Source of the DNA: Pseudomonadota bacterium | GTDB taxonomy: Bacteria > Pseudomonadota > Gammaproteobacteria > SURF-13 | Direction: 5' to 3' | DNA: 64,000 nt | Assembly (NCBI GenBank): GCA_027624315.1 | Contig: JAQBXX010000001.1 | Coordinates: forward strand, 62,203 to 126,202 | Shown here: positions 8,008-31,984 of the stretch, piece after piece | How the letters are laid out: the number at the start of each line of letters is the position of its first letter | How positions within the stretch are numbered: position 1 is the stretch's first letter | Notes under the pieces: model-generated | What the model was told of the DNA's origin: nothing | The model's database searches: none | What the model saw: only the letters and a program-made list of their open reading frames with translations | Program-made: the position numbers and the translations under genes

Positions 8008-8160
8008 GGGAAGCTCTGATTTATTCAGAGCTTCCCTGCGGCACACGGATGTGCCGCCATTTCTCAAACACGCAAGTGTTTGAGAAATGAAGAAAAACGA
8101 AAATCGCATTTTCGTTTTTCGTCTCTGAAAATTCCATGGATGGAATTATTCAGAGTTTCC
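8008..8160 (-). repeat. composite multi-hairpin intergenic element, copy A (inverted relative to copies C and D)
   Basis: The reverse complement aligns module by module with 28922-29075 and 31843-31984. The modules are ctctgaataattcc..ggaatt..cagag, gaaaaacgaaaatgcgattttcgtttttc, tttctcaaacacttgcgtgtttgagaaa, gcggcacatccgtgtgccgc and gggaagctctgaataaatcagagcttccc. Confidence 0.8.
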
Positions 8161-8179
8161 TTAGTAAGGGAGAGTCGCC

Positions 8180-8404
8180 ATGGAAAAGTTTAACATCGCC
8201 GAAGCCAAGGCTCATTTTTCCGAGCTGGTGCAGAAGGCCATGCTGGGTAAAGAGGTGATTATCGCCAAGGGTAGCAAGCCCCTGCTCAAGCTGGTTCCAC
8301 TGGCGCCAACACAGCCGCGCAAGCCGGGGTCGGGTAAGGGGCAGGTGCTCCATGTGGCATCTGATTTCGATGCCGCTCTGGAGGATTTTAAGGGCTACAC
8401 CTGA
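8180..8404 (+). CDS. type II antitoxin (Phd/YefM-like, VapB-type)
   Basis: 74 aa, MEKFNIAEAKAHFSELVQKAMLGKEVIIAKGSKPLLKLVP. Overlaps the downstream PIN toxin start (ATGA). Confidence 0.8.
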   Translation: MEKFNIAEAKAHFSELVQKAMLGKEVIIAKGSKPLLKLVPLAPTQPRKPGSGKGQVLHVASDFDAALEDFKGYT

Positions 8405-8790
8405 TGCGGTTGTTGCTCGATACCCACACCTTTCTGTGGTGGGTAGAGGATGCGCCCGCGCTCTCCAAAAAAGCACGGCAAGCCGTGGCGAATCCGGACA
8501 ACGAGTGCCTGCTGAGCCTGGTGAGCTGTTGGGAAATGGCGATCAAACTTCGTCTTGGCAAGCTCAAGCTGGCAAACAGGATAGAGCGTTTTATCCCGGA
8601 GCAGCTTTCGGTCAACGGATTTCGTCAGCTTGAAATAGATTTTCGCCATGTGGCGCGGGTCGCGACGATGCCTTTTCACCACCGTGATCCATTTGACCGC
8701 TTGCTGGCGGCACAAGCAAAGGAAGAAAAACTGGCTATTGTTTCAGCAGATGCCGTATTCCAAAAATATGGCGTAAAACGAATTTGGTAG
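8404..8790 (+). CDS. vapC: PIN-domain toxin VapC
   Basis: 128 aa, [13 protein letters not shown]...[13 protein letters not shown], a PIN fold with conserved acidic residues. Confidence 0.85.
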
Positions 8791-8806
8791 AACGCCGAGG
8801 AGCGAG

Positions 8807-9838
8807 ATGGCTAATCCGGAACAGCAGTGCGGTCGTTTTCCCCACACGCGCATGCGCCGCATGCGGCATGACGATTTCAGCCGCCGTTTGATGCGCGAGA
8901 CCACGCTCAGCGTGGACGACCTCATCTACCCGATGTTTGTGCTCGAGGGCAAAGGCAAGCGCGAGGCGGTGGCCTCGATGCCCGGCATTGAGCGCGTGAG
9001 TGTGGATGAATTACTGAAAGAAGCGGCGGCGCTGGTGCAGCTCGGCGTGCCTGCGGTCGCGCTGTTTCCGGTTACGCCGCCGGAGAAGAAATCGCTGGAT
9101 GCGCAAGAGGCATGGAACCCGGACGGCCTCGCGCAGCGCGCGGTGCGTGCGCTAAAGAAGGAATTTCCGCAGCTCGGCGTGATTACCGACGTCGCGCTCG
9201 ACCCGTTCACCACGCACGGGCAGGACGGTCTGATAGATGCCACCGGCTATGTGCTGAACGATGCAACCGTCGCGGCGCTGGTGAAGCAGGCGCTGTCACA
9301 TGCCGAGGCCGGCGCGGATGTCGTGGCGCCGTCGGACATGATGGACGGGCGCATCGGCGCGATCCGCAGCGCCCTGGAATCCAAGGGCCATATTCACACG
9401 CGCATCCTTGCCTATGCCGCGAAATACGCCTCCAGCTTTTACGGCCCGTTCCGCGATGCGGTGGGCTCGGCGGCCAATCTTGGCGCGGGCAATAAATACA
9501 CCTATCAAATGGACCCGGCCAACAGCGACGAGGCGCTGCGCGAGGTCGCGCTCGATCTCGCCGAAGGCGCGGACATGGTGATGATCAAACCGGGCCTGCC
9601 CTATCTCGACATCGTGCGGCGCGTGAAGGATGAGTTCGGTGCACCGACGTTTGTGTATCAGGTGAGCGGTGAATACGCGATGCTGATGGCCGCCGCGCAA
9701 AACGGCTGGCTCGACGAAAGGGCGGTGGTGCTGGAATCGCTCGTCTGCATCAAGCGCGCAGGCGCTGACGGGATACTCACCTACTTCGCCAAACGCGCGG
9801 CAGAGTGGTTAAAGCAGGGTAGGTCGGATCAAGCGTAG
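8807..9838 (+). CDS. hemB: porphobilinogen synthase (delta-aminolevulinate dehydratase)
   Basis: 343 aa HemB/ALAD family ([27 protein letters not shown]). Confidence 0.9.
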
Positions 9839-9931
9839 CGGATCCGACACCCGTTTGCCGGTTCCGCGCTGCGCGCTTGCACCGACCTGCCGTGTAACAC
9901 TCCCGTCATATATGTTTCATATCCTCACGGC

Positions 9932-29462: not shown

Positions 29463-29470
29463 CGGTATTA

Positions 29471-29517
29471 ATCCGGAATCACACTAATGACGTGTAGTCA
29501 TTAGTGTGATTCCGGAT
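29471..29517. repeat. 47-bp palindrome (21-bp perfect arms, 5-nt loop) overlapping the argB stop
   Basis: atccggaatcacactaatgac gtgta gtcattagtgtgattccggat. The last 13 argB codons are encoded inside it. Confidence 0.7.
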
Positions 29518-30405
29518 CAGTGTACCCACGCCTTCATCAGTAAAGAGTTCGAGCAGTACGGCGTGTTCCACGCGGCCATCGACAATGTGCACCGCGCCCA
29601 CACCGACCTGCACCGCGTCCAGCGCGCAGCGTACCTTGGGCAGCATGCCGCCATGAATGGTGCCGTCGGCAATCAATGCCGCGACCTGTTTTGCATCCAG
29701 ACGCTCAAGCAGGTTACCCGCCTTATCGAGCACGCCCGGCGTATTGGTAAGCAGCATCAGTTTCTCGGCGCGCAGGGTTTCGGCGAGCTTGCCCGCCACC
29801 AGATCGGCGTTGATATTGTAGGACTGGCCGTCGTCACCCGCACCCAGGGGCGCAATCACCGGGATAAAATTGCCGCTGATCAACTTGTCGAGCACCGAGG
29901 TGTTGATGCTCGCCACTTCACCCACGTAGCCGATGTCGATGATCTCAGGCTGCTCCCGCCCCGGCGTCTTGCGTGTCAGCAGGTGCTTGCGCGCACGTAT
30001 CAGATTGCCGTCCTTGCCCGGCAGGCCCACCGCCACACCGCCGTGACGGTTAATGAGATTCACGATGTCCGTGTTGACGAGGTCACGCAACACCCTCTCC
30101 ACCACAGCCATGGTTTCGCTGTCGGTCACGCGCAGGCCTTCTACAAACTGGCTCGGCTTACCCAGTTTTTCCAGATGCTGGCCGATCTGCGGGCCGCCGC
30201 CGTGCACCACCACCGGATTGATGCCGACCAGCTTCATCAACACCACATCGCGCGCAAAGCCGCTCTTCAGCGTTTCGTCCACCATGGCGTTGCCGCCGTA
30301 TTTGATGACGATGGTCTTGCCCTGAAAGCGCCGGATGTAAGGCAGCGCCTCGGTCAGCACGTGGGCAATATTGTTTGCCGTAACAGTATTCAGGTTCATG
30401 GTCAT
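29479..30405 (-). CDS. argB: acetylglutamate kinase
   Basis: 308 aa, [12 protein letters not shown]...[13 protein letters not shown] family ArgB. Confidence 0.9.
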
Positions 30406-30409
30406 GCCA

Positions 30410-31789
30410 TCAAAACGGCAGTTTTAAATTCGGGTCCAGATGCAATAATGCCTCACGAAATTGCTGCTGAATGCGCGCCAGCGCCGCCGTATTGTCCGCC
30501 TCGAAGCGGATCACCACCGTCGGCGTGGTGTTGGATGGCCGCGCCAAGCCCCAGCCGTCGTCAAAATCGGCGCGAATGCCGTCTATCGTGGTGAGCCTCG
30601 CACCCGGAAATTGCGCGCTCTTTTGCAGACGCTCCATGAGCTTGAAATGCTCGCCCTCTTTCATCTCCAGCTTCAGTTCCGGTGTGTTCACGGTCTCCGG
30701 CAATTCCGCGAACACGGCGCTCGGCGTGCGCGCATCGTGCGCCAATATCTCCAGCAGGCGCGTGGCGGTGTAGAGGCCGTCGTCGAAACCGTACCAGCGC
30801 TCCTTGAAAAAGATATGGCCGCTCATCTCGCCCGCAAGCGCCGCACCGGTCTCCTGCATCCTGGCCTTGATAAATGAGTGGCCCGTTTTCCACATCATCG
30901 GAATACCACCGTGCTGCGCGATCACCTCGGCCAGATTGCGCGTGCATTTTACGTCATAAATAATCGTTGCGCCCGGATTGCGTGACAGCACATCCCTTGC
31001 ATACAGCATCATCTGCCGGTCAGGCCAGATGATGTGGCCTTCCGCCGTCACCACACCAAGACGGTCGCCGTCACCGTCGAAGGCGAGTCCCAGATCGGCG
31101 CGCTGCGCCTGCACCGCGCGGATCAGATCCTGCAGATTCTCCGGCTGGCTCGGGTCGGGATGATGATTGGGGAAGTGACCGTCCACCTCGCAAAACAGCT
31201 CGGCCACCTCGCAGCCCAGCGCACGCAACACACGCGGCGCGAGCGCGCCCGCGACACCGTTGCCGCAATCCACCACCAGACGCAACGGTTTCTTTAATTT
31301 CACATCCGAAACAATGCGTGCGATGTAATCCGGCACCACATCCACGGACTTCACTGTGCCCGCACCGCTTGCCAGCTTGCCTTCGACAATGCGCGTGCGC
31401 AGCGCGGTGATCGCATCGCCGGACAGCGTCTCCCCGCCCAGCATGATCTTGAGGCCGTTGTAGTCGGGCGGATTGTGGCTGCCGGTGATCGCCACGCCGG
31501 AACCGGTATTGAGATGATGCGTGGCGAAATACAACACGGGCGTCGGCACCTGGCCGATGTCGATCACGTCCACCCCCGCCGCGCACAGTCCGTCACTCAA
31601 GGAGCGCGCGAACTCCGGCCCGGACAAGCGCCCGTCGCGCGCCACGATTACGGTCTTCTGGTTGCGCGCACGCGCCTCACTGCCGATGGCGCGACCGATT
31701 TCAAAAACGATTTCGGCGGTCAGCGTTTTACCGACGATGCCGCGTATGTCGTAGGCCTTGAAAATAGTCGCCGGAATTTCCACTGTCAT
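30410..31789 (-). CDS. algC: phosphomannomutase/phosphoglucomutase
   Basis: 459 aa with active-site motif [11 protein letters not shown]. Conserved argB-algC-dut-coaBC order, as in Pseudomonas. Confidence 0.9.
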
Positions 31790-31842
31790 TTCTTGTTCTC
31801 TTTGCTTTCCCTTGCTACTCGTTACTTATTTACGGAAGCTCT

Positions 31843-31984
31843 GAATAATTCCATCCAGGAATTATCAGAGCACGAAAAGCAAAAATGTGATTTTTTCTTT
31901 TCTTCATTTTTCAAATACTTACGTATTTGAAAAATGGCGCTACACCCCTGTAGCGCAGGAACCTCTGACACATCAGAGGTTCCT
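31843..31984 (+). repeat. composite multi-hairpin intergenic element, copy D
   Basis: About 90% identical to copy C. The gcgctacacccctgtagcgc module shows compensatory changes relative to gcggcacatccatgtgccgc. The last hairpin abuts the dut stop codon. The element lies 54 bp upstream of the algC start. Confidence 0.8.

Follow-up and report, generated by a model that had tools for sequence, protein, structure and literature searches.

The stretch of DNA analysed in the current study, hereafter referred to as the window, comprises 64,000 nucleotides (nt) of a metagenomic scaffold from an uncultured Pseudomonadota bacterium of the gammaproteobacterial lineage SURF-13 (contig JAQBXX010000001.1, positions 62,203 to 126,202). 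[quoted passage not shown] The copies, each 150-163 bp in length, were located by means of a 31-nt core pattern allowing three mismatches or fewer, for which no occurrence is expected by chance, and a search with a covariance model of the core returned the same four copies and no others, thereby confirming the number proposed in an initial annotation of this DNA. The gene context put forward in that annotation, consisting of the antitoxin/PIN pair, hemC, algC, the DUF4124 gene and dut, was likewise borne out (Table 1). Copy boundaries were refined using the inverted repeats and the flanking duplications; in particular, the start of copy D had been set at 31843, which missed 9 nt of the terminal repeat, the true start being 31834. 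The four copies align end to end over their full length, and their G+C content is approximately 35-40% as compared to approximately 62% in the host DNA. Across the family the element measures 150-165 bp, a length within the span of about 50-600 bp that characterises prokaryotic MITEs, leaving no room for a gene inside.

Table 1. Coordinates of the element copies in the window, their target-site duplications and the hairpins of copy C
Feature	Position	Strand	Description
Copy A, type 1, 152 bp	8009-8160	minus	Inverted repeats GGAAACTCTGAATAAT and GGAAGCTCTGATTTAT; flanked by a pilin gene and a divergent antitoxin/PIN pair
Target-site duplication of copy A, TTAG	8005-8008 and 8161-8164		CTAA/CTAA in element orientation
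Copy B, type 2, 163 bp	24772-24934	plus	Inverted repeat CAGGCTGTTGAAAAA at each end; flanked by the stop of a LytTR regulator gene and by the hemC start
Target-site duplication of copy B, CTAA	24768-24771 and 24935-24938		
Copy C, type 1, 153 bp	28923-29075	plus	Flanks TTAA / TTAT, matching at 3/4 positions; between the DUF4124 gene and a convergent 91-aa open reading frame (ORF)
Copy D, type 1, 150 bp	31834-31983	plus	In the dut-algC spacer, at a distance of 44 nt upstream from the start codon of algC
Target-site duplication of copy D, TTAC	31830-31833 and 31984-31987		Includes the dut stop codon (TAA, minus strand)
Hairpin 1, copy C	28927-28961	plus	Overlaps the left terminal inverted repeat; loop ATCCA
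Hairpin 2, copy C	28964-28992	plus	Core module 2, AT-rich stem; helix 1, 7/13 pairs changed on both sides
Hairpin 3, copy C	28997-29028	plus	Core module 3; helix 2, 98.7% paired, 7/12 pairs changed on both sides
Hairpin 4, copy C	29029-29048	plus	Core module 4, GC-rich stem, ATCC loop; helix 3, 7/8 pairs changed on both sides
Hairpin 5, copy C	29049-29076	plus	Palindrome of the inner and outer copies of the right terminal inverted repeat

Concerning the ends of the element, terminal inverted repeats of 15-19 bp are present on both sides, and a comparison of the window copies with 17 further copies from public metagenome-assembled genomes (MAGs) revealed two types. Type-1 ends, which delimit copies A, C and D, have GGAAGCTCTGAATAA as their left-hand sequence and, on the right, GGAAYCTCTGATTAA in reverse complement, while the type-2 ends of the subfamily to which copy B belongs begin with CAGGYTGTTGAAAAA on both sides. 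For 53 copies it was possible to place both ends from the repeat alone; in 37 of these the flanking 4-mers are identical, while the next 4-mers outward, taken as a control, are identical in none (0/53). Since the 4-mers match at the edge of the element and never farther out, these flanking repeats represent duplications of the target that lie outside the element. The sequence YTAR accounts for 31 of the 37 duplications (CTAA 20, CTAG 5, TTAG 4 and TTAA 2), with TTTT, TTAT, TTTA and TGAA as the rarer forms matched on both sides.

Sites without the element were recognised in related genomes. A search for AlgC homologues yielded seven syntenic relatives, in which AlgC is 83-95% identical, and the element is missing from site D in all seven and from sites B and C in every relative whose fetched DNA covers them. 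In L019 (loci outside the window are designated by L numbers), site B reads GCCTTAGCA-TTAG-TGCTTTGATTT, and the window contains the same sequence plus the element and a second TTAG; at site D the sequence of L148, GACAGTAAATAAGTAGCGAGTGGCAA, corresponds to that of the window minus the element and minus one GTAA. Site C is unoccupied in L019 and L147, and one relative possesses a copy of the element at another location. The insertions are precise, are accompanied by a 4-bp target duplication and are recent.

The element is not confined to the locus at which it was noticed. An exact 24-nt pattern detected it at 17 loci in approximately nine MAG species, the carriers being uncultured Gammaproteobacteria, Acidiferrobacterales or Pseudomonadota and including groundwater bins, while a second 24-nt pattern detected it in at least 120 metagenome contigs, with many of the matches at contig ends, as repeats break assemblies. 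All family copies were found via core patterns, the metagenome part being the matches listed, and among these at least 163 core hits and at least 78 distinct full copies with flanks were counted. A blastn search of the plasmid collection with copies B and C gave no match, and neither the end sequences nor MITEs in Acidiferrobacter turned up in literature searches. The family is undescribed until now, a bacterial MITE being in itself a well-known kind of element. Mobility is demonstrated by the empty sites, the duplications and the dispersal across genomes, which together with the terminal inverted repeats substantiate the MITE-like character proposed in the initial annotation, where evidence had been asked for of target-site duplications (37/53 copies) and of insertion polymorphism (sites B and D).

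The position of the copies relative to genes was determined with a gene caller based on codon usage, for which the called genes of relatives served as the training set. Of 105 distinct sites, 99 lie outside called genes, and 15 of the 36 copies situated downstream of a gene are within approximately 16 nt of its stop codon. This preference for stop codons and leaders is explained by the target itself, since YTAR is AT-rich and contains TAA and TAG; in a genome of 62% GC, usable YTAR sites are mostly located at gene ends and in spacers. The duplication created by copy D rebuilds the stop codon of dut. As regards orientation, neighbouring genes read into the plus strand of the element in 36 cases and into the minus strand in 31 (p = 0.63), and those reading away from it are split 27 versus 25. 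The dut-algC spacer seems to be a recurrent landing site. It measures only 16-35 nt in close relatives that lack the element; in L022 (7299-7378) it holds unrelated short repeats of the GTTAAAAGT type, and in L021 (9830-10000) an unrelated element with the inverted repeats TACTCAGGAGTCACA / TGTGACTCCTGAGTA.

Every window copy, when folded as the initial annotation had recommended, forms five adjacent hairpins on both strands, with z-scores of approximately -11 to -12 against shuffles. The inner three hairpins constitute the conserved core, while the outer hairpins 1 and 5 each consist of the terminal repeat and a second, inward-facing copy of that repeat. The modules are palindromic as described previously but fall short of 'perfect', several stems having single mismatches or bulges, and the T-run regarded as a family feature following the last hairpin was observed in copy C only, where the tip of the repeat has mutated from TTCC to TTTT.

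Compensatory changes in the stems, of which the initial annotation had listed examples, are real in those examples and extend to the wider family. Across 38 distinct cores, 95.4% of cells are paired, as opposed to 45-55% with partners slid, and both sides have changed in 21 of the 33 core pairs; none of 500 shuffles reached the observed values. Covariation is retained in the larger sample. In type-2 copies hairpin 5 is 98.9% paired, and all four pair types occur at one of its positions. Compensation in hairpin 1 was read from the sequences alone, loop-length differences making the MAFFT columns inconsistent; between subfamilies its arms change together (AATTCC/GGAATT, AAGTCC/GGACTT and AACCC/GGGTT). 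While the stems vary, the loop motif RTCC is present in hairpin 1 of 73/78 copies and in hairpin 4 of 67/78. In copy C these loops are located at 28941-28945 and 29037-29040 of the window, and an optional GC-rich module, described below, has the same loop motif.

The length of the duplication, the target motif and the end sequence together point to an IS5-group DDE transposase, acting in trans, as the putative mobiliser. The IS5 copy of E. coli K-12, taken as reference, has the repeats GGAAGGTGCGAATAAG and GGAAGGTGCGAACAAG and lies between two TTAG 4-mers. Aligned to the IS5 repeat from the tip inward, the type-1 end of the window, GGAAGCTCTGAATAAT, is identical to it at 12 of 16 positions, a number that rises to 13 of 16 in copies ending ...AAG; by binomial arithmetic, the probability of 12 or more matches out of 16 by chance is approximately 3 in 100,000. 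The target duplication of IS5 is 4 bp in length and has the motif YTAR, as recorded for 220 events (PMC5009759; see also PMC10379815). MITEs derived from the IS5 family are known, among them BrickBuilt in Porphyromonas gingivalis and ATR in Neisseria (PMC4596501), and the profile of the present element fits that given in a review for prokaryotic MITEs, which are AT-rich and intergenic, form stable stem-loops and contain nested insertions (PMC10969869). We consider it highly probable that the copies represent a non-autonomous, IS5-type MITE family that is moved in trans by a transposase encoded elsewhere. Such a transposase would cut and paste, or copy, the gene-less element, and each insertion duplicates 4 bp of the target, with YTAR being preferred.

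A number of observations weigh against this assignment. A tblastn search of the window and of 1.13 Mb of related loci with the E. coli IS5 transposase did not find an IS5-like gene, and pairs of inverted repeats positioned 600-3000 bp apart enclose host genes only. The type-2 end starts with CAG(G) rather than the GG of the IS5 group and shares only the inner TGAAAAA; because it begins with CAG, the transposase serving this subfamily may be related but different. Nor is a duplication of 4 bp restricted to the IS5 group. Hairpin 5 has perfectly matching arms even in those copies whose left end differs, so that pairing or palindromy is itself maintained, beyond the needs of transposase recognition. 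Between the subfamilies, finally, the core is 81% identical and the ends 63% and 44%, which is unusual for a purely selfish MITE, although this difference is inflated by the fact that all copies were found through core patterns, so that the apparently higher conservation of the core is suggestive. A type-2 end in L077 was considered as the edge of an insertion sequence and rejected, as it adjoins a sigma-54 regulator gene. Viral contigs scanned with both end types produced one small element, which is unrelated (L150), together with matches inside phage genes that are attributable to chance.

With respect to the compensated stems, selection for pairing or palindrome correction at the DNA level could be their source. 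In quasipalindrome correction, template switching or mismatch correction within hairpins changes both arms together, and the compensation would then be an unselected by-product of replication by which imperfect palindromes are made perfect. This is a serious alternative as an explanation of the compensation, and one that we entertain tentatively: compensation extends to all hairpins, the terminal ones included, and shows no strand asymmetry, the two arms of hairpin 5 agree more closely with one another than with the left end of the copy they belong to, and the orientation of the element relative to genes is random. It leaves unexplained, however, the conserved loops and unpaired linkers (e.g. 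CTTCA and ATGG) as well as the similarity of the core across subfamilies that have different ends.

Selection acting on transcripts would also explain the compensated stems, together with the high conservation of the core, if the latter were a functional RNA module (for instance a small RNA, a bidirectional terminator or a protector of mRNA 3' ends) that is merely spread by the transposon. The strong stem covariation, the RTCC loops that stay constant while the stems change, and a core more conserved than the ends between subfamilies are in agreement with this possibility, for which SPRITE and Correia elements provide precedents (PMC10969869). On the minus strand, moreover, CATTTTTC invariably succeeds the GC-rich hairpin 4, an arrangement that resembles a terminator, and in copies B, C and D the minus strand is the sense strand of the upstream gene; in the dut-algC operon, hairpin 4 and the T-run on the sense strand may attenuate read-through. 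On the other hand, the orientation of the element is unbiased, both for genes reading in (36 vs 31) and for those reading away (27 vs 25), and G:U wobbles occur on both strands at similar rates (e.g. nine G:U at one pair and seven C:A at another). No promoter-like site was found inside the element, and Rfam gave 0 window matches at the gathering threshold, the best score in a permissive scan of copy C being 25 bits against thresholds of 44-141. Given this random orientation relative to neighbouring genes, the strand-specific terminator or small-RNA role raised in the initial annotation is without support, and the wider notion of an RNA module appears unlikely. A symmetric role, for example in bidirectional attenuation or in protecting 3' ends, is conceivable.

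It is also conceivable, if decidedly unlikely, that the three-hairpin core is a cargo with a function of its own, which was captured between palindromic transposon ends and has been spread by at least two end types. One such function would be that of a platform for a protein recognising RTCC loops in folded single strands, and another that of a bidirectional transcription insulator. Were this to be the case, the element would be a 'composite MITE', its conserved unit being the cargo instead of the ends.

The remaining alternatives fare considerably worse. The modules being near-perfect dyads and the elements being promoter-proximal, the palindromes might be taken as a double-stranded operator array for dimeric DNA-binding proteins, yet the stems vary freely as long as their arms match while the constant parts are the loops, which is the opposite of duplex sequence recognition and renders this form of the previously suggested protein-binding array very improbable. 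A REP/BIME-type array, handled by a RAYT protein that acts on single-stranded hairpins, would resemble the element in its series of short palindromes, its conserved loop motifs and the covariation of its stems, and a gene of the relatives L023 and L024 has a weak Y1_Tnp match. The terminal inverted repeats, the 4-bp duplication and the precise empty sites, all of which REPs lack, make the BIME-like classification of the initial annotation hardly tenable, and no RAYT gene flanked by copies was present in the loci examined. The gene in question (L023/L024, 741-1271) encodes 176 aa, has an IS200/RAYT-like Pfam match and lies beside an HNH gene; window ORF 6483-7013, of the same length (176 aa), was considered as a Y1_Tnp gene and rejected, as it specifies an ACT-domain protein. 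Lastly, a Correia- or RUP-like MITE mobilised by an IS630/Tc1-mariner-type transposase with a TA duplication may be dismissed as barely credible, for although TA occurs in most flanks and the size and AT-richness are near those of Correia elements, the direct repeats are 4 bp long (CTAA...CTAA, TTAC...TTAC) and include the TA-less TTTT and TGAA, and empty sites hold one 4-mer rather than one TA.

Within the IS5-type MITE family favoured here, the type-2 subfamily is the commoner in metagenomes (34 vs 20 typed copies). Its end hairpins are homologous to those of type 1, having the same architecture and the same loop motif and being connected to them by intermediate forms, and the core of copy B carries subfamily-specific paired changes, such as A-U versus C-G at one pair. 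Judged by these sequence features, copy B looks like the product of divergence of whole elements, that is, a member of a second subfamily, and not like the mosaic of swapped modules that had been suggested for it. Mosaicism of another kind is nevertheless real, and takes the form of optional GC-rich inserts nested in the element, of one chimera and of other small elements with shared ends.

The optional GC-rich module, GGCCGCTCCTGCGCATCCCTGC...GGGCATCCCTGCCCGGC, is approximately 52 nt in length and has opposite orientations in type 1 and type 2. It is positioned 5' of the core in type-1 copies (L011, L030, L033, L069 and L132) and 3' of the core in type-2 copies (L133, L062, L055, L126 and L044), and looks like a smaller element nested in the MITE. 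Further inserts were observed in module 4 and in the module-2 loop. Some variants reach a length of 420-560 bp (L106 9650, L092 843, L134 110, L139 4023 and L050 3649), which is accounted for by nested inserts only, these being a GC-rich block of approximately 200 nt in the 3' arm of hairpin 1 and an insert in the loop of module 2. The chimera, located in L049 from 2273 to approximately 2440, has a type-2 end on the left and a type-1 end on the right, with the GC-rich module and then a module-4-like hairpin between them; the flanking 4-mers are unmatched (CTAA vs TTTA), and it is probably a recombinant and not a transposed unit.

Type-1 ends also delimit other elements of 110-130 bp, present in L066 (3039-3148, the same in L071), L051 (93-222) and L150 (approximately 1002-1130), which have 4-bp flanks (TTAA/TTAA in L150) and unrelated interiors made up of hairpins of the GTCATGCCCGCG...GGGCATCCAG type. 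The same ends on unrelated interiors are to be expected if the transposase recognises the ends. Hairpin 5 was evaluated as an independently mobile mini-element and rejected as such, with about two convincing solo cases, the other solo matches being parts of long variants. Solo hairpins formed by two type-2-like ends back to back were noted in L021 (17600-17660, CTAG/CTAG) and L119 (3923-3955, ATAG/CTAG), and 4-mers of the CTAA type bracket hairpin 5 itself in L137, L141, L108 and L105.

A second repeat family is present in the window at 1462-1594 and 29393-29517, with related heads at 5816, 6428 and 16657 (minus strand). Its head of approximately 60 nt consists of a GTCCCCGCCCC...GGGGCGGGAC hairpin followed by AGGGTGGGGGTAGAGTAA. 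The head is succeeded by a long perfect palindrome, not the same from copy to copy, whose arms measure 25 nt at 1540-1594 and 21 nt at 29471-29517. Heads resembling those of this family were also observed in the dut-algC spacer of L021 and beside an element copy in L030. Elsewhere in the window, the region 36000-42000 has a G+C content of 0.51-0.55, compared to approximately 0.62 outside it, and may constitute a foreign island.

The current study provides a clean and well-bounded MITE family for poorly known groundwater and soil Gammaproteobacteria, and one that is unusually well structured for a MITE. Its description should be of assistance in annotation, as such elements break assemblies and create spurious ORFs, and, since the insertions are recent and polymorphic, they may serve as strain-level markers. 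It also offers a simple account of the accumulation of IS5-type elements at stop codons in GC-rich genomes. If the conserved core were functional, the family would represent a case of a structured module spread by transposition, and the dut-algC insertion is a natural place to ask whether the element rewires an operon. The points of note in what is otherwise an ordinary kind of element are accordingly the missing transposase, the conserved core with its RTCC loops and the effect of the dut-algC insertion.

When compared with known systems, the family shares with REP/BIME sequences the arrays of short extragenic palindromes with compensated stems; REPs, however, have neither terminal inverted repeats nor a target duplication and are linked to a Y1 transposase gene, the element described here being the opposite in these respects. 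BOX and SPRITE elements of Streptococcus pneumoniae are similarly modular, with optional or repeated internal modules, nesting and terminator-like hairpins (PMC3049150, PMC10969869), but belong to another host phylum and have no sequence similarity to the present family, and BOX is without a clear signature of inverted repeats and a 4-bp duplication. The Correia elements of Neisseria (CREE/NEMIS) are likewise AT-rich, intergenic and abundant, with a length of approximately 100-155 bp, terminal inverted repeats and hairpins, and are often co-transcribed with neighbouring genes. They differ in their TA duplication and in forming one long hairpin via 26-bp repeats, in contrast to the 4-bp YTAR duplication and five local hairpins observed here. 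With IS5 and the MITEs of the IS5 family the element has in common the 4-bp YTAR duplication, the GGAAG...GAATAA start of the type-1 repeat (12-13 of 16 positions identical to IS5), its non-coding nature and the predicted long stem-loops. It is set apart from them in that no cognate insertion sequence was found in the loci searched and the ends of the second subfamily start with CAG, and in that it is built of five separate hairpins around a core which is conserved across subfamilies and is neither a remnant of an insertion sequence nor a minisatellite.

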